A stretch of 60,475 nt of DNA from a virus (IMGVR_UViG_3300025114_000001:1-60475); one strand, 5' to 3'; shown: positions 6,122-58,113, numbered from the stretch's first letter. A program made the numbers and translations. The notes: generated by a model not told the origin, from the letters alone.

Positions 6122-7708
6122 ATGGGGGACAATAAAAAACAGCTAGCTGCAGCGCGCGCCAAAGAGAAAAAGGCCGCCGCAGACAACAAAAAGCTTCTTG
6201 CCCGCGTCAAAAAGCTAGAACGCGGCACGTCGAAAACTGCCAAAGATGCAGCCGACGGGGCCAAGAAATCTATTAATACGCTAAGTGAAGCCATAGATGC
6301 CCTCGCTAAGCCAACAGAAGAAGTTCTGCAGGGATTCACGGCGCTGGTTGCGTCATCAGCCGAATTCCAAAAACAAAATCAAAAGTTTTTCCAAGCTGGT
6401 TACACTGGCCAGATGTTTAGCTTTTCTGATGCTATTAGCACAGCAAACAAGGCTAGCCTCGACTTAAACGGAAATCTTTCAGCAGGCGCCACCGTGGCTA
6501 CAGCATTTCGAGATAAGACTATGGCTGTGGCTGTGGCATCAAAAGGCTTAACTGATGCTCTGATGACATCCGGCGTTGCCCTGCAGGGCGCGGGGTTTGA
6601 CATGAATACCTTTGCTGAAATAGTAGATTCAGCAGCCTTCGCTTTTAATAAGAATGAGTCAGGAATAAAAGGCCTTACAGCTACCCTCATAAATGTTCAG
6701 AGAGAAATACCAGTTTCTGGTAGGGTTTTAGCAGATAATTTTCGTTTTGCGCAAAAGAATTTTGCTTATTCTTCCGGCAAGATGATGGACAACTTCATTG
6801 GGTTACAAAAGATGTCAGTTACGACAGGTGTCAGTTTTGAAGGACTCACCACCGCTTTTGGATCCAGTATGGACACTTTCCAGGGCTCTGCAGAAAAGGC
6901 CGGCAAGCTAAACCAGATTCTGGGCAAGTCAGCCTTCAACAGTATGGAGTTGCTGACCATGACAGAAACAGAGAGAGCAACAAAAATTAGATCTGCAATT
7001 ATGGAATCTGGTCGTTCAATTGAGGATATGGGTAAGTTCGAATTAATTGCGTTGCAGAAAACAATAGGTTTAGGTAGTATGGAAGACACAAGAAAGTTTC
7101 TTAGAGGCGATCTAAAAATAGATGAAAAGAAAGCGCTAAAGGAAATAGAAGCTAAAGATCCAACATCACTAAAAGGAAAGCAGCTAAATGCTACGCTGGA
7201 TGCTTTGCGCGCCGGCATAGACCGCACCCGCCCTGCAGCCGACCGTTTTCACATCGGACTTTCAAGAATGAGTGTTGCAGCTGCTCGGCAGGTCGTCAAC
7301 ACGGACGCTGCCACCGGGAAGCTTAAAAAACTCGGCCTGACTATCGACCAAATATTACCGGCTTTCTATGAACTTGGCCTAGGTGGTGCGACCATGGTCG
7401 CTGACCCTCATTCCGCCACTGGATTAAGCCGTAGAGACCATACTGCAATAGATAAGACAGTTAAAGCAATTGAAAAATCTTTTCCAAAAGCCCTGCAGCC
7501 TTATGCAAAGATCTTCGCTGCCGCTGGACTCTCAAATTCAAAAACCGCCCAGGGATTGTTGATAGCGACTAACAAATTTGTGGATGCATTCAGCATGGGA
7601 AACCTCGATAAGCTTGTTAAATCTGCCCAGGCCCAGGTCATTAACGTATACGTTGATGGCAAGCTAACCGATAGCAAAACAGTGACCACAAGGGCGGAAA
7701 CGAAATGA
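6122..7708 (+). CDS. Tape measure protein
   Basis: Ala/Lys-rich helical protein after the chaperone and before the baseplate genes; C-terminal INVYVDGK motif. Confidence 0.75.
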   Translation: MGDNKKQLAAARAKEKKAAADNKKLLARVKKLERGTSKTAKDAADGAKKSINTLSEAIDALAKPTEEVLQGFTALVASSAEFQKQNQKFFQAGYTGQMFSFSDAISTANKASLDLNGNLSAGATVATAFRDKTMAVAVASKGLTDALMTSGVALQGAGFDMNTFAEIVDSAAFAFNKNESGIKGLTATLINVQREIPVSGRVLADNFRFAQKNFAYSSGKMMDNFIGLQKMSVTTGVSFEGLTTAFGSSMDTFQGSAEKAGKLNQILGKSAFNSMELLTMTETERATKIRSAIMESGRSIEDMGKFELIALQKTIGLGSMEDTRKFLRGDLKIDEKKALKEIEAKDPTSLKGKQLNATLDALRAGIDRTRPAADRFHIGLSRMSVAAARQVVNTDAATGKLKKLGLTIDQILPAFYELGLGGATMVADPHSATGLSRRDHTAIDKTVKAIEKSFPKALQPYAKIFAAAGLSNSKTAQGLLIATNKFVDAFSMGNLDKLVKSAQAQVINVYVDGKLTDSKTVTTRAETK

Positions 7709-22231: not shown

Positions 22232-22305
22232 GCCCAAGAGACCCTATAGGAATGGGTGCCTCACCCCCAGTGAGGAAGCTGCAGGTTCGACTCCTGCCTT
22301 GGGCT
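22232..22305 (+). tRNA. Non-canonical tRNA-Gly(CCC)-like RNA
   Basis: Cloverleaf: acceptor GCCCAAG/CTTGGGC, D stem ACCC/GGGT, anticodon stem CCTCA/TGAGG with loop CCCCCAG, T arm GCAGG-TTCGACT-CCTGC, discriminator U. CCA is not encoded. Atypical A8, U14 and C33. Confidence 0.8.
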
Positions 22306-22350
22306 CAACCCTTTCCCCCCTGCTTTCTCCTCATAGTGCGGAGATAGTAC

Positions 22351-52876: not shown

Positions 52877-53076
52877 AGTTAGACCCCTTTGAACTCCACC
52901 CTGATGTTGAGCCACAAGAAAAAAAACCCAATAATATCTTGACTTTAGAGCAGATTTGTGATATTATAGATATAGAAATTAAAGAAGTCGAGGGCCTACC
53001 CCCTAATCCTTGGGGGTTCACTCGCGACGATATTATAGAAGCACTAGAAAAAGTTAAAGAGAAAATAGAAAAGTAA
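52873..53076 (+). CDS. Hypothetical protein
   Basis: Coupled 67-aa ORF. Confidence 0.5.
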   Translation: MKLDPFELHPDVEPQEKKPNNILTLEQICDIIDIEIKEVEGLPPNPWGFTRDDIIEALEKVKEKIEK

Positions 53077-53670
53077 ATGTCAAAAGTATTAGCAAACAAT
53101 GTCTATAAGATGAGGAACGAAGAACTTATCGGCCTCGCCAAGAACAGGTTTCTGCCGGCAAATGTGCAACTTGCAATCGCCAAGTTTGGCTACCGCCGCG
53201 CTCATGAATATTTAACATACAATCTAGGTCTGGACAAGAAAGTCAGAGACTACCTGTGGTCTGATGAGTGCAACAAGGGATACGTCCTTAAGACTTCTCT
53301 GCTTGCTTATGGGCACTACAAGGACGACCCATCAAAATACTGGGATCTCTATACTCGCTATCCTTCCGCTTGGGGTCGATCGCCCTGGAGAATGAGCCAA
53401 GCTTTATTTGGGGGCTATCTTTATGCCCGCGCCCGCGGGTCCGCTGCTCCATCTGACCTCCTAAACAAGATTTATGATGATAACTTCGATGACCGCGGCC
53501 CTAAACTCCATGGAGAAGTAATGCATTATTGGGGACCAACGAAGTATCAACTAAGCAGATTAGCTCAGAATCCAAATGTAGATTTGGTTTTAGCAATCAA
53601 ACTATCGCAGCGACCCGAAGAAAATATCAAACGTCTCGGCTTCGCAAAAATCGTAGAACTTTCAAAATAA
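53077..53670 (+). CDS. Helical-repeat (LRV/HEAT-like) protein
   Basis: LAKNRFLP and LAQNPNV..LAIKLS repeats. Confidence 0.5.
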   Translation: MSKVLANNVYKMRNEELIGLAKNRFLPANVQLAIAKFGYRRAHEYLTYNLGLDKKVRDYLWSDECNKGYVLKTSLLAYGHYKDDPSKYWDLYTRYPSAWGRSPWRMSQALFGGYLYARARGSAAPSDLLNKIYDDNFDDRGPKLHGEVMHYWGPTKYQLSRLAQNPNVDLVLAIKLSQRPEENIKRLGFAKIVELSK

Positions 53671-53686
53671 AAAGATTAAAAAGGTA

Positions 53687-53715
53687 TTGACACTCAGACT
53701 GAGTTGTGCTATACT
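53687..53715 (+). promoter_or_regulatory. Sigma70 promoter with inverted repeat in the spacer
   Basis: TTGACA-17bp-TATACT with extended TG; ACTCAG-A-CTGAGT at 53692-53704. Confidence 0.75.
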
Positions 53716-53774
53716 ATTTATATACAGTAGAAGAGTAACTAACCAATAACTGCTAACAACTAAGGAGACCCCCA

Positions 53775-54839
53775 ATGGCAGTTGATTTTAAGACATTCTC
53801 AAGTATCGTTGACCACGTAACCGCAGTCCGCAAGCCAGTCTTGCTCCGCGGAAGGCATGGCATCGGCAAATCCACCGTTGTCTACCAATACGCTAATAGT
53901 ATTGGAATGCCCGTTGTCGAACGACGAGCATCACAAATGACAGAAGGCGACCTAGTCGGTCTTCCAGTCATTGAAGGCAACAGTACCAAGTTTAATCCAC
54001 CAGACTGGTTCAAGACTGCCTGTGACAATCCCGTCATTCTTTTCTTGGACGAGGTAGACAGGGCAACCCTTGAGGTCCGACAGGGCATTTTCGAGCTAAC
54101 AGACAGCCGCAAATTGAACGGGCACCGTTTACACGAGGACACCTTAGTCTTTGCAGCCGTCAACGGCGGCGAGCATGGCTCTCAATACCAGGTCGGCGAA
54201 ATGGACCCTGCCGAGCTTGACCGTTGGACAGTATTTGATCTTGAACCTAGCGTCGAGGATTGGCTAACTTGGGCCAAGGATGAAGGTATTTCGGAAACTA
54301 CGTGGGACTTCATCAATCAGAACCGTGTTCACTTAGAGCACTCCGATGACTTCGAGCCCAACAAGGTTTATCCAAGCCGCCGCAGCTGGGAACGCCTAGA
54401 CGTCTGTCTGGCAAAAGCTAGTCTTCTTGAAGAGGCCAGCCCCACACTATACAGCTTGACATCGGCCTTCGTCGGATTTGAAGCCGCCGTCGCCTTTAAC
54501 GATTTCGTAGCAAACTATGATAGGCAAGTTACTGTTGAGGATATTTTGGTACACGGAAACTTCTCCAAGGTTTCGGACTTCGGTATTAACGACCACACTG
54601 CACTTATTGATAAGTTCGAGGCAGCAGACTGCTTCAAGGAAGAGCTGGACCAGGATAGGGTAGACAATCTTGCCAGATATTTCATCATGCTCCCTTCAGA
54701 GGTCGCAATGAAACTTTGGTCAGTCATGGGCAATGGAAATCTCAACAACACGATTAAGTTACACCAGGCTGATGTCAACGGCGATTCAGTTTCGGATTAC
54801 CTCGTAAAGATCCTCGCAGGGGATAACAACGGAGAATAA
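53775..54839 (+). CDS. MoxR-like AAA+ ATPase
   Basis: Walker A GRHGIGKS, Walker B LFLDEVDR, AAVN and MDPAELDRW. Confidence 0.9.
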   Translation: MAVDFKTFSSIVDHVTAVRKPVLLRGRHGIGKSTVVYQYANSIGMPVVERRASQMTEGDLVGLPVIEGNSTKFNPPDWFKTACDNPVILFLDEVDRATLEVRQGIFELTDSRKLNGHRLHEDTLVFAAVNGGEHGSQYQVGEMDPAELDRWTVFDLEPSVEDWLTWAKDEGISETTWDFINQNRVHLEHSDDFEPNKVYPSRRSWERLDVCLAKASLLEEASPTLYSLTSAFVGFEAAVAFNDFVANYDRQVTVEDILVHGNFSKVSDFGINDHTALIDKFEAADCFKEELDQDRVDNLARYFIMLPSEVAMKLWSVMGNGNLNNTIKLHQADVNGDSVSDYLVKILAGDNNGE

Positions 54840-54842
54840 GTC

Positions 54843-56081
54843 ATGGCTGACTTCGACCTAAACATTCACACGGCTCGTCTTCTTATGGACGAACCTTTCT
54901 TCGCTGCCATTTCCAGGAGGATTGACAAGAGAGCCAGCCACGCAATTCCCACAGCCGGTGTTATGGTTAACCCAGACACCGCGCAGTTTGAAATGCTTTA
55001 TAACCCTGACTTTTTTGAAAAGCTGACCGACCTTGAACGCGCTGATGTGCTCAAACACGAGTTTTATCATATCACCTTTCTACACGTAACTGACAGGATG
55101 CCAGAAGGTGTAAAGCCACAACTATGGAATATTGCAGCAGATTTAGCAATAAACTCTCACCTTTCCAACTTGCCAGAACGCGGCCTGATTCCAGGTGAAG
55201 GCCCATTCAAAGATCTCCCACGCGGCAAAAGTGCCGAGTGGTACTTAGCACAAATGCCAGGGGTCAAACCCGGCCCTGACGAGGGTGAAGAGGGTGAAGA
55301 GGGTGAAAAGGGCGAGCCAGGACAAGCAGGAGCACCAGGGCAAGAAGGTAAAGGCAAGGGAAAGAGTATGTCCGACCTTGCAGAAGAAGATATGCCCGAC
55401 ACCCTCGATGATCATTCCGGCTGGGGCAAGTGCAGCCAGGAGATGAAGGATATGGCGAAGGAGCGGCTGAAAGATATTATTCGCAAAGCCGGCGAGGATT
55501 GTGCCAAGAACAATAGTTGGGGTTCTGTATCCGCCGATTGTAAAAGGAAAATTATGAAGGTTCTGGATACAAAAGTCGATTGGAAAAAGGTTCTTCGTTA
55601 CTTTGTAAAAACCAGCCAAAGAGCAAACAGGTCCAGTTCGATCAAGCGCATCAATCGTAGATATGCTTATATCCACCCTGGAAAGCGTTCTAATCGAGTT
55701 GCTCGCGTTGCAATTTCCATTGACCAGTCTGGTTCCGTCAGTGACCAGTTACTTTCAAGGTTTTTTGCAGAGCTTAATAAGCTGTCAGAGATAGCAGAAT
55801 TTGTTGTAATACCTTTTGATACTCATGTTGAAGAGAGCCTGGTTTATACTTGGAAGAGGGGCCAGACAAAAGCTACCGAACGTGTATTACACGGCGGCAC
55901 TTGTTTCGACGCACCGACTGATTATGTAAATAAGAACAACTTCGATGGCCACATTATCCTCACTGATATGTGTGCCCCGAAGCCACAGTCGAGCAAGTGT
56001 CAGCGTATGTGGATGACCACAACAGAGTTTGCCACCAGGCCATATTTTGAGACAAAAGAAAGAGTAGTCGTGGTTGACTAA
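54843..56081 (+). CDS. Metallopeptidase plus VWA domain protein (DUF2201-like)
   Basis: IPTAGV, LKHEFYH (HExxH), WNIAADLAIN, MIDAS DQSGSV, GGTCF and LTD. Confidence 0.88.
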   Translation: MADFDLNIHTARLLMDEPFFAAISRRIDKRASHAIPTAGVMVNPDTAQFEMLYNPDFFEKLTDLERADVLKHEFYHITFLHVTDRMPEGVKPQLWNIAADLAINSHLSNLPERGLIPGEGPFKDLPRGKSAEWYLAQMPGVKPGPDEGEEGEEGEKGEPGQAGAPGQEGKGKGKSMSDLAEEDMPDTLDDHSGWGKCSQEMKDMAKERLKDIIRKAGEDCAKNNSWGSVSADCKRKIMKVLDTKVDWKKVLRYFVKTSQRANRSSSIKRINRRYAYIHPGKRSNRVARVAISIDQSGSVSDQLLSRFFAELNKLSEIAEFVVIPFDTHVEESLVYTWKRGQTKATERVLHGGTCFDAPTDYVNKNNFDGHIILTDMCAPKPQSSKCQRMWMTTTEFATRPYFETKERVVVVD

Positions 56082-56100
56082 GGCAGCCACATTGTAAAAC

Positions 56101-56340
56101 CCATGGGTTGTTAGCCTATGGTGCTGTCTGGTCAACATTGGTAATACAAGGTTTCTAAGATTTCGCTTTGTATTGCCACCAGGCAGCGGATCCATCAGCG
56201 AACTAAGTAATGAAGGCGCGATTGCCTATACACGCGCTCAACGGCCCGGTTTGGTATAACTAAGCCGGAGAAGAAAATAAAATTAGACATAGGCTGGCGA
56301 GGGCAAGGCGGCAAGGACAGCCTCCCTGATGGGTTCTCAT
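56101..56340 (+). ncRNA. Unclassified structured RNA (multibranched, possible pseudoknot)
   Basis: Seven helices, most with G-U wobbles consistent with the + strand, in a non-coding gap; see findings. Confidence 0.6.
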
Positions 56341-56356
56341 TTTCTGGAGTTTATTG

Positions 56357-56455
56357 ATGTTATCTTCACTAGCTTGGCAATTGATATGGAAATCAGCCGC
56401 TGGTTTGGTGCTTGCTTTTGTTTTTTTTCTGGTTATTTATAGCACCTACGAATAA
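56357..56455 (+). CDS. 32-aa single-TM peptide (not in the ORF track)
   Basis: GGAG RBS, then MLSSLAWQLIWKSAAGLVLAFVFFLVIYSTYE. Confidence 0.5.
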   Translation: MLSSLAWQLIWKSAAGLVLAFVFFLVIYSTYE

Positions 56456-56490
56456 GTATTATATACCACCATATTGAGGAGGAAGTCACT

Positions 56491-56870
56491 TTGGGGTAAT
56501 CACTGGAATTGCACTCGGGTTTCTATACGCTAACTTCCTTGATTGGTCAGTGCATATCCTCCTCCATAAGCCTAAAGGCAAATCGCGCTTTCGATTTCAT
56601 TATTGGAAGCATCACGCAATCTCAAGAAAAAATGGAAACCATGATGAAGACTATTCAGAAAAGATTTTTCATAATGAGACTTGGTTAACACTTTTAGGCG
56701 CAGCTGCCCACCTTCCTTTGTTGTGGGTTTGGTTTCCGTTTGCAGCAACAGCCATCATCTACGCATTGGTGTGTGGTCTGCCCTTTGATGGACCATCTAG
56801 CAGGTACAAGGGAAAAATATTTAAACTAAACATAGTTACAACACTATGGAAGTTAAACAAGGTGATCTAG
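56491..56870 (+). pseudogene. Fatty acid hydroxylase/sterol desaturase-family remnant
   Basis: His boxes (DWSVHILLH; FHYWKHH) and TM segments are present. The RBS-linked TTG is out of frame (TTG GGG TAA) and the downstream His boxes are missing. Confidence 0.55.
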
Positions 56871-57070
56871 TAGCTTGCTATATAACAAATACTAGCGAGT
56901 GGAGGGTGTTGGTGACCTGGGGGCTTGTGCTAGAAGTCAAGCCCCTTTTGGGAGATATTTTTGTTTTAGACAATGATGGCCACTCAGCATGGTGGCCACA
57001 CAGAAGATGGAAAGTTGTTTCTGCAAAAAAAGATATAAAACATCTTGACTTAGACATCGAAATAGTGTAA
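56846..57070 (+). CDS. Small SH3/KOW-like protein
   Basis: VKQGDLV...WGLVLEV. Confidence 0.55.
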   Translation: MEVKQGDLVACYITNTSEWRVLVTWGLVLEVKPLLGDIFVLDNDGHSAWWPHRRWKVVSAKKDIKHLDLDIEIV

Positions 57071-57106
57071 TATAGTAATAGAAGAATTAAAAAAAAGGCA
57101 TTAAAA

Positions 57107-57304
57107 GTGATCAAAACTGGAGACTTAGTAAAATATACTTGGTCAGATACCGTCGGCCTCGTGGTAAAGGTCAATAGAGAATCCCTGTCTGGGGAAATCA
57201 TGGTGAAGGTACAATGGCCAGATTACTTCGCCAAAAAGAATAACGCCGGCTCGAATACTTGGTTTACTCGACTCGACAGATGGCTAATGAAAGTAGAAAA
57301 ATAA
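57107..57304 (+). CDS. Small SH3/KOW-like protein
   Basis: IKTGDLV...VGLVVKV...KVQW; promoter TTGACT-17bp-TAATAT at 57045-57073. Confidence 0.6.
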   Translation: MIKTGDLVKYTWSDTVGLVVKVNRESLSGEIMVKVQWPDYFAKKNNAGSNTWFTRLDRWLMKVEK

Positions 57305-57654
57305 TGGGATATAGATCAGAAGTCGCGCTCTCGGTAACAACTGACGCAGCCTTCCTTCTTAAAGAACTTTGTGAACACAACACCGACTTGAAAGAAATTA
57401 TAGAGGAAGGCCTGAACGGCATGGGTTGGAATTCCGAAACAATCAGGAATGGTCATGAAATTACCTTCTACTGGGCGGATATAAAATGGTATGATAGTTA
57501 CCCAGGAATTGTTCAGATTCAAGCCTTTATGGATAATTACAACTCCGATGAATGGCGTTTTATACGAATTGGAGAAGACATTGATGATAACATTGAAGAC
57601 GGTTATTTTTATGATTCTGGAATATATATAAATAGGTCAATAGAGGGTCAGTGA
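57304..57654 (+). CDS. Conserved phage hypothetical protein
   Basis: MGYRSEV...IKWY...FIRIGEDIDD; start overlaps the upstream stop (TAATG). Confidence 0.65.
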   Translation: MGYRSEVALSVTTDAAFLLKELCEHNTDLKEIIEEGLNGMGWNSETIRNGHEITFYWADIKWYDSYPGIVQIQAFMDNYNSDEWRFIRIGEDIDDNIEDGYFYDSGIYINRSIEGQ

Positions 57655-57655
57655 T

Positions 57656-57946
57656 ATGATAAAATTTCAGATAGGTGATTCTGTTCTGGCCTATAAAGGC
57701 AGCTCGAATACTAAGCTAGTTGGTATAATTTTTAAGTCGAGTAATGTTTCTGGTTCAGACTATCCTGATAGGTGTGTTTTCTCAGTGAGATTCCAGGATA
57801 TGCCAGCTAACCATGCAACTTTTGTGTATACCGGCTCGTCGCGAGGATATGATCCAACAATTTGGTACCTCCCCGGAACAGATTTGCTCACAGAAGCAAG
57901 TATTATTGAAGTCCATAGAGGAACAGAAGTGATATGGACGGGGTAA
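57656..57946 (+). CDS. Small SH3/KOW-like protein
   Basis: FQIGDSV...VGII. Confidence 0.5.
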   Translation: MIKFQIGDSVLAYKGSSNTKLVGIIFKSSNVSGSDYPDRCVFSVRFQDMPANHATFVYTGSSRGYDPTIWYLPGTDLLTEASIIEVHRGTEVIWTG

Positions 57947-58113
57947 TTTTTGCCTGTGCATCAATCTGGATACTGACCTTTCTAGTGTCTAGGATTGTAC
58001 GCTCCCACGAGCGAGATAGAGAATTAAAAAAGTATGTGGTTGAACAGTTAATCAAAGCACACGTACAAAAAAAGAAAATTGACCGGCTTTACGGTCGAGA
58101 TGGAGAAGAATAA
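57934..58113 (+). CDS. Small membrane-anchored protein (not in the ORF track)
   Basis: MDGVIFACASIWILTFLVSRIV..., 59 aa. Confidence 0.45.
   Translation: MDGVIFACASIWILTFLVSRIVRSHERDRELKKYVVEQLIKAHVQKKKIDRLYGRDGEE

Follow-up and report, generated by a model that had tools for sequence, protein, structure and literature searches.

A gap between genes of an uncultured marine myovirus encodes a structured RNA of about 240 nt that is read from the + strand and whose core, about 150 nt long, is closed by a long-range stem. The + strand fold is under selection, and the RNA is a family of its own, whose core was recovered as 64 distinct sequences on marine contigs, both viral and metagenomic. The window that was analyzed, by which we mean the whole stretch of DNA that holds the RNA (60,475 bases), is a virus fragment from IMG/VR that is estimated to be 33% complete and that encodes a tail sheath, a DnaB-like helicase, a ribonucleotide reductase (RNR), a DnaE-like polymerase, and a GroEL-like chaperonin. 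No close cultured relative was found when the DUF2201 protein encoded next to the RNA and the DnaE-like polymerase were searched against phages, as relatives were at most 30% identical over their full length; a single fragment of 118 residues reached 37.7% identity. The RNA was found in one lineage only, that of uncultured marine myoviruses with genomes of about 160 to 190 kb.

Two co-oriented genes precede the RNA, which sits in the gap after both of them. One (53775-54839, + strand) encodes a MoxR-type AAA+ ATPase of the AAA_5 family (PF07728, E = 1.4e-09), and the other (54843-56081, + strand) encodes a protein that joins DUF2201_N, a putative metallopeptidase, to a vWA-like DUF2201 domain (PF13203, E = 1.8e-22; PF09967, E = 2e-11). 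The start of the RNA lies no more than about 20 nt past the DUF2201 stop codon, and a DUF2201 homologue was found directly upstream on the same strand in all 54 of the distinct members for which 200 nt or more of upstream sequence was at hand. Translation past the DUF2201 stop codon was considered and rejected, as the frame ends after 10 codons. A consensus scan of positions 53000 to 58000 indicated a putative sigma-70-like promoter upstream of the AAA_5 gene (53687-53715, + strand; TTGACA, a 17-nt spacer, TATACT, and TG before the second hexamer; 11 of 12 matches), which was the best promoter-like site of the region and the sole strong one, in a scan that scores consensus matches only and that returned 8 sites where 7.6 were expected. 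The same scan found no promoter-like site in the stretch that separates the RNA from the DUF2201 stop codon.

The wider surroundings gave three further observations. By our own tally, 7 of the 15 related contigs that reach 180 kb or more (L003, L018, L032, L046, L078, L079, and L081) had the AAA_5/DUF2201 locus no farther than about 10 kb from one end, where about 10% was expected; a few kilobases beyond the operon there may be a genome terminus or a break in the assembly. ARAGORN identified a tRNA-Gly(CCC) gene in the window at 22232-22306, far from the RNA. One related locus, L004, carries a cluster of three tRNA genes (6700-6928) about 2.3 kb downstream of its RNA.

To judge the fold, the + strand at 56082-56360 was compared with shuffled sequences. 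Its minimum free energy was -97.2 kcal/mol, against -80.5 +/- 5.0 kcal/mol for the shuffles (z = -3.35), and none of 200 shuffles was as good. The minus strand was unremarkable (z = -0.86; 38 of 200 shuffles as good). A sequence-only reading of this stretch had proposed seven stems, six of which stood when checked base by base, every pair being standard; we define these as P1, P2, P2a, P3, P4, and P5. The seventh, AGGCTG/CAGCCT (56291-56296/56318-56323), was given up because its GGC is taken by a better-supported pairing, here called PK1, and because, by our own reading of alignment A2, GACUG faces CAGCC or CAGCU in 14 members, which leaves an A-C without compensation. The same reading had described a multibranch fold with a possible loop-loop pseudoknot between TTGCC and GGCAA. 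A pseudoknot does exist, namely PK1, but the pairing proposed for it was wrong: TTGCC lies in the 3′ strand of P2a and not in a loop, P2a itself varies as an insert among relatives, and most members have GGUGA or GGCGA in place of the second GGCAA.

The 5′ part of the RNA forms a peripheral domain that stands outside the closing stem P3. It begins with the P1 hairpin (CCAUGGGU/GCCUAUGG; 56101-56108/56114-56121, + strand), and a P1-like hairpin ended no more than 5 nt from P2 in 40 of 54 distinct upstream sequences, with stem sequences that differed among members. P2 (56123-56132/56178-56187, + strand) encloses the conserved GGUCAA (56130-56135) and P2a (56140-56151/56166-56177, + strand), an insert that varies in relatives. 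With at least 6 of 8 pairs as the threshold, P2 was present in 56 of 61 distinct upstream sequences as 26 different sequence pairs, the GGTCA within it being nearly invariant, and it was missing in L005, L124, L101, and L013. We conclude that most members have the peripheral 5′ domain, made up of P1 together with P2 and its GGUCAA, and that some can do without it. A recurring UACGGGCAUCGAAAG-like block with UACG and GAAA tetraloop-like turns was seen in the P2 insert of 13 of 63 members (for example, L014, L098, L104, and L105), and a similar block occurs in P5 of L006 and upstream in L013; that its position differs between members points to a structural insert that can move.

The core is closed by P3 (56188-56198/56326-56336, + strand), the strands of which are GAUCCAUCAG/CUGAUGGGUU in the window. 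An unaided scan for complementarity found P3 in every member as a complementary 8- to 10-mer, with varied sequences such as GGAUUCUUGG/CCAAGAAUCU, AUCCACCAGG/CCUGGUGGAU, and CUCGUUAG/CUAACGAG. Within P3 lies the P4 hairpin (GGCGCG/CGCGCU; 56215-56220/56233-56238, + strand), whose 12-nt loop contains the 5′ strand of PK1 (GCCUAU, 56224-56229, + strand); the 3′ strand of PK1 (AUAGGC, 56289-56294, + strand), some 60 nt farther downstream, is reached through P5 and an A-rich single strand. P5 (CCGGUUUGGU/ACUAAGCCGG; 56246-56255/56259-56268, + strand) is a variable arm, the region of which folded at -8 kcal/mol or below in 52 of 56 distinct sequences that were unrelated in sequence and length. The A-rich strand (56269-56288, + strand) is conserved, holds most of the invariant or near-invariant A columns, and leads into PK1. 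After PK1 come UGGCGA, the short helix P6′, and a conserved loop ending in GGACAGCC (together 56295-56325, + strand). P6′ (56301-56303/56323-56325, + strand) is GGG/UCC in the window and GUCA/UGAC in most relatives; it abuts the 3′ strand of P3, and its purine-rich loop has letters that are invariant or nearly so. A short T-tract (56340-56343, + strand) lies just past P3. We conclude that P4 and PK1 form an H-type pseudoknot with P5 and the A-rich strand in its long third loop. The A-rich strand would presumably run along P4 as part of that loop, and PK1 may form either within one molecule or between molecules, as the covariation fits both arrangements.

To gather relatives, 163 relatives of the DUF2201 protein were found in viral contigs and the best 80 of the 163 were taken for study of their loci. 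By nhmmer and blastn, the RNA was present just after the DUF2201 gene in 12 of these best 80 loci, and two diverged copies, L012 and L013, were recognized by eye. A degenerate pattern made from the most conserved 3′ part matched 85 metagenome stretches, 65 of which had the wider motif; the other 20 were false positives, and the ones inspected were GC-rich coding sequence. In genome_contigs the pattern gave five matches, among them a single true and full match (L182) and one that was a 19-nt fragment (L183). The full match lies at 7124-7304 of an 84.5-kb contig labeled as a Legionellales metagenome-assembled genome and scores 149.5 bits, with a 3′ part that, as read, matches that of L011; the contig is probably phage DNA binned into that assembly, or else a hint to the host. 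A looser pattern gave 107 matches in viral sequence, and a filter for A-richness kept 10 of the returned loci. Five of these carried the family RNA (L191, L223, L260, L279, and L282), two were duplicates (L233 of L191 and L232 of L223), and the remaining three were GC-rich coding sequence.

A covariance model, R1, was built with 165 positions, 20 pairs, and an effective sequence number of 3.12. R1 scored the window at 112 bits (E = 4.9e-29), the twelve viral loci at 121 to 161 bits, and the diverged copies L013 and L012 at 29.5 and 24.7 bits, respectively; no other convincing match was found among the 80 loci. The features of the R1 definition were all found in the window RNA: the P3-closed core, P4, PK1, the A-rich run, CUGG, and a P6′ loop ending in GGACAGC. 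Moreover, R1 matched all 70 sources supplied to it, which had been chosen for carrying the motif, and the matches yielded alignment A3 with 64 distinct rows. The RNA was present in one copy per genome in all five records searched, two of which are 100% complete at about 190 kb; second R1 matches in three records (G003, G004, and G005) were coding or unrelated sequence on reading. The same was true of weak matches in L040 (21 bits), L017, L043, L177:1188, and L183. No match to the RNA was found by blastn in 50,697 phage records.

Two loci carry a mini-variant of about 125 nt, one of them seen four times (L070, L073, L191, and L233) and the other twice (L223 and L232). The mini-variant scored 13.5 bits with R1 and retains the plan of the family, with a closing stem, a hairpin whose loop pairs with a strand that follows an A-rich run, CUGG, and then a loop that contains GCGACGAGGACAGC. 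The two versions differ in PK1, which is GACUC/GAGUC in one and GAUGC/GCAUC in the other, and in the closing stem P3, which is rebuilt. We tentatively assign the mini-variants, two distinct sequences, to a wider family.

Covariation was examined on two alignments. Alignment A2, made by MAFFT from 58 sequences and fitted to no structure, was 91.7% paired over P3, P4, PK1, and P6′, a value that fell to 23 to 45% when the partners were slid by 1 to 3 columns. In the model-fitted A3 (64 distinct sequences), which leans toward the modeled helices except that the PK1 pairs are outside R1, 97.5% of the cells were paired and 18 of 26 pairs changed on both sides. Double-change cells numbered 178 where 38 were expected, and none of 500 shuffles reached any of five measures; this control ignores relatedness in a family that is narrow by its effective sequence number of 3.12, and part of the covariation may reflect a few inherited events.

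Each helix of the core contributed. All 10 modeled pairs of P3 changed on both sides in A3, with 97.4% paired. P4 was 98.9 to 100% paired, with double-sided changes in 4 of 6 pairs on A3 and in 3 of 6 on A2, and the pair that closes its loop was G-C in 51 sequences and C-G in 12. PK1, joining 56224-56229 in the P4 loop to 56289-56294, was 99.7% paired across the 64 sequences; one of its positions was U-G in 37, U-A in 14, and C-G in 12 sequences but never C-A, and a second was U-A in 48, C-G in 11, and U-G in 3. P6′ was 91.8% paired on A3, and 2 of its 4 pairs changed on both sides. A scan of all column pairs gave one more candidate contact, CUGG-Y-G with GGCG-R (C-G in 53, U-A in 9, and U-G in 1). 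Three further pairings were considered and discarded: one between the 5′ leader and the P3 strands, whose partners differ by subtype and which was judged by eye to be due to chance; a GGC-GAAA-GUC mini-hairpin, which is not conserved; and GGUCA with UGACC, as the window type has GGUCA without UGACC. Finally, G-U or U-G occupied 158 of 1,602 paired cells by our own tally of the A3 pair table, where the other strand would read A-C. We conclude that the evidence from pairing identifies an RNA and that the RNA is on the + strand.

Comparison with known RNAs was made with Rfam 15, the 4,227 models of which include riboswitches, ribozymes, RNase P, tmRNA, 6S, SRP, Y RNA, pRNA, GOLLD/ROOL/HEARO, and group I and II introns. 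At the gathering score, the sole match in the whole window was the tRNA at 22232-22305. At E of 10 or less, positions 55900 to 56600 gave two chance-level matches alone, PK-IAV outside the RNA (15.3 bits; gathering score, 47) and sR52, the best on the RNA (12.6 bits; gathering score, 50). A permissive scan of the L004, L012, L013, L014, L070, and L223 loci likewise gave nothing on the RNA, and ARAGORN found no tRNA or tmRNA on it, its only call being the tRNA-Gly(CCC). These results bear out much of what the sequence-only reading had held besides its stems: that G-U pairs point to the + strand, that no tRNA, tmRNA, RNase P, or hammerhead is present, and that the element is a new phage noncoding RNA, ribozyme, or cis-regulator, this third point being upheld by the lack of an Rfam match, by strong covariation, and by a + strand fold that beats shuffled sequence. 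Three of the checks it had suggested agreed as well, as the Infernal search against Rfam left the novelty standing, the folding energy was exceptional on the + strand only, and the homologues, once gathered, covaried. Full-text searches of the literature found no description of this RNA. A prediction of 8,495 novel candidate structured RNAs of 29 to 151 nt from IMG/VR (PMC10690425) contains, in the portion of the article available to us, no mention of DUF2201, vWA, or such a context, and its supplementary tables may list a fragment of the RNA as an unnamed candidate.

What follows the RNA differs among members. In the window it is a 32-amino-acid hydrophobic peptide ORF (56357-56455, + strand) with GGAG at 56346-56349, 8 nt upstream. 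Hydrophobic ORFs of 27 to 33 amino acids were found 3 to 36 nt past the RNA in 29 of 62 distinct members, and by our own reading most share LWKG...FFLVI...DE. Among the 80 DUF2201 loci, clear matches to the peptide (E of 1.2e-6 or less) occurred in 6 RNA-bearing loci and a marginal one occurred in L006 (E = 0.12, same position); none was found at the corresponding position in the RNA-less loci. In 28 of the 62 members, a T-tract about 3 nt after P3 is followed by a gene of about 74 amino acids with its ATG at a fixed 31 to 32 nt, and a run of at least 4 T's lies within 22 nt of the RNA end in 34 of the 62. The T-tract may mark the 3′ end of the transcript. Canonical Shine-Dalgarno sequences lie outside P3 in most peptide-bearing members, with no conserved anti-Shine-Dalgarno sequence detected by eye; in L004, L092, L107, L126, L140, L147, and L169, AUG comes a few nucleotides after P3, and the sole Shine-Dalgarno-like sequence, GGUGGA, is inside the 3′ strand of P3. 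Of the mini-variants, one has a promoter-like site after it and the other an unrelated ORF of 103 amino acids.

Some features of the downstream genes were noted in passing. The gene of about 74 amino acids is also present in the window (56846-57070, + strand), where it has a start with PGD[LF]VACY, no Pfam family, and no visible Shine-Dalgarno sequence; in L008, L010, L046, and others it lies about 31 nt after the RNA. It is preceded by a conserved A/T-rich block, CATAKTTA...TATG, the last ATG of which is the start codon. As a general promoter, CATAKTTA-N4-TATG was rejected, as the window holds 13 copies against 11.7 expected, which is no enrichment. After the peptide, an ORF at 56503-56870 (+ strand) encodes a membrane-like protein with histidine-rich HxxxH-like motifs recognized by eye, and a similar one occurs in L005; no Pfam family was found in the part searched, 56550-56870.

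The reading that we favor, with a probability of about 0.45, is that the RNA is an autonomous folded phage noncoding RNA at the tail of an early AAA_5/DUF2201 operon and not a switch for a single gene. The RNA gene would be read from the + strand, as one family within one uncultured marine myovirus lineage. Apparently lacking a promoter of its own, the RNA would be the 3′ part of an AAA_5/DUF2201 transcript begun at 53687-53715, and it would either remain attached to that transcript as a structured 3′ terminus or be released. It would act by its fold, presumably with its invariant unpaired segments as the contact for a protein or a small partner, and it would not be dedicated to one downstream gene. 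Co-transcription was favored by the short distance from the DUF2201 stop codon and by the sole strong promoter-like site being upstream of AAA_5. Autonomy was favored because the RNA is kept whatever gene follows, its 3′ neighbor changing between peptide ORF (29 of 62) and T-tract with the gene of about 74 amino acids (28 of 62), and to a promoter or an unrelated ORF after the mini-variants, while the RNA is conserved; because the closing stem leaves out a 5′ domain that is conserved; and because no alternative pairing was found. The single copy per genome in the five records searched was counted for it as well. Counted against it were the ORF found only beside the RNA and the GGUGGA in P3 of L004-like members, and both of these speak for the main rival, less probable than the preferred reading: a riboswitch-like cis-regulator, in which the P3-closed core would be the sensor and P3, forming close to the T-tract or the ribosome-binding site, would control whether the peptide is translated or the next gene is reached by read-through. 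Such a switch would account for a GGUGGA that is held within a helix with AUG a few nucleotides on, and the T-tract about 3 nt past P3 in 28 of 62 members might combine with P3 to terminate transcription. An aptamer-like build, with a variable closing stem around an invariant interior that contains a pseudoknot, also suits it, and the Downstream-peptide motif is a precedent. Against a switch, about half of the members lack the peptide and yet keep the RNA intact, most peptide-bearing members have their canonical Shine-Dalgarno sequence outside P3, and one mini-variant is followed by a promoter rather than by a co-transcribed ORF. Moreover, the P1-P2 domain extends beyond the closing stem, there is no anti-terminator pairing to be found, and a 10-bp stem around 150 nt, set off from the T-run by a 3-nt spacer, does not make a canonical intrinsic terminator.

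Two other explanations fit the data less well. One is that the RNA is self-cleaving or otherwise catalytic and would process a polycistronic early transcript at the junction of DUF2201 and the downstream gene, which we consider improbable. The compact pseudoknotted core with its invariant unpaired nucleotides and the position between cistrons of an operon are what a ribozyme might show. Small ribozymes are known to reside between the genes of phages; a preprint exists on the theta ribozyme. Nonetheless, no Rfam 15 ribozyme family matched even at E of 10 or less, no cleavage site could be deduced, and the size and peripheral domain are unlike those of most self-cleavers. The other explanation, that there is no functional RNA and that the conserved element is a DNA-level signal (a protein-binding, replication, or packaging site) or an unrecognized coding region, is very improbable. 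The closeness of the locus to a contig end (10 kb or less in 7 of the 15 related contigs that reach 180 kb) makes a terminus-related DNA element conceivable. Against it, G-U is tolerated and A-C avoided on one strand only, four helices and a pseudoknot show compensatory changes, arms of variable length alternate with invariant blocks, and no conserved ORF spans the RNA. Cutting across these alternatives, the RNA might represent a new class of sensing or catalytic RNA whose fold has no kinship with known classes, either a riboswitch that gates the peptide or the RNA subunit of a particle with the MoxR-type ATPase and the vWA/metallopeptidase protein, akin to Ro60/Y RNA in plan with unrelated parts; we entertain this tentatively and hold it to be unlikely. 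The preferred reading remains the autonomous noncoding RNA of the AAA_5/DUF2201 operon.

Few folded RNAs of 150 to 250 nt combine several helices with a covarying pseudoknot, and earlier ones proved to be ribozymes, riboswitches, or components of machines built from RNA and protein. The source phages are marine viruses of about 160 to 190 kb that are abundant yet uncultured, and the operon, seemingly transcribed by the host polymerase, offers three candidate partners in the MoxR ATPase, the vWA protein, and a tiny membrane peptide to which the RNA is often joined. Because model R1 and the 64-sequence alignment A3 exist, the family can now be searched for, probed, and expressed. Even with a modest role, the RNA would fill a gap in Rfam for marine viral RNAs.

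Among known systems, the RNA resembles several in part. GOLLD and ROOL are RNAs of about 580 to 800 nt. Like them, the window RNA is encoded in phage or prophage DNA, has many helices and pseudoknots, was found by covariation, and has no known biochemical job; it differs in its length (about 240 nt, with a core of 150 nt), in being tied to a DUF2201 gene where GOLLD and ROOL are tied to tRNA clusters, and in that their Rfam 15 models do not match it. According to the preprint "Naturally ornate RNA-only complexes revealed by cryo-EM" (10.1101/2024.12.08.627333), GOLLD/ROOL-like RNAs form RNA-only assemblies. With the SAM-II/SAM-V and preQ1-II aptamers, the window RNA shares a hairpin loop that pairs with a downstream strand, an A-rich connector, and marine settings. 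Those aptamers are about 50 to 70 nt long, and the glutamine-binding Downstream-peptide motif is a marine riboswitch with a short conserved ORF just 3′ of the RNA. In contrast to these H-type aptamers and to the Downstream-peptide motif, the connecting loop of the window RNA holds a whole arm, and two more helices and a 5′ domain are present; none of their Rfam models matches, and a downstream peptide is missing from half of the members.

Likeness to the phi29-type pRNA lies in a folded phage RNA of similar size that is encoded next to an ATPase gene and, judging by contig ends, near a genome terminus. The window RNA differs from pRNA in having no Rfam match to it, in an ATPase that is of the MoxR type and not a packaging ATPase, and in its source, a myovirus of about 190 kb; moreover, TTGCC and GGCAA are neither in loops nor conserved, which speaks against membership. 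In rsr-yrlA, a noncoding RNA comes directly after, and is co-oriented with, the gene of a vWA-domain protein, Ro60. The window RNA likewise directly follows a co-oriented vWA-type gene. A phage homologue of Ro60 is reported in PMC12135203. The neighbors here are instead AAA_5 and DUF2201_N with the vWA-like DUF2201, with no TROVE domain reported. YrlA (RF02553) did not match the RNA, and its weak match of 25 bits, against a gathering score of 69, falls on the L004 tRNAs; with no TROVE gene among the neighbors and no tRNA-like module detected on the RNA by ARAGORN, the RNA does not belong with the Y RNAs. We conclude that, as judged by sequence comparison, the RNA is a new family that stands outside all families of Rfam 15.
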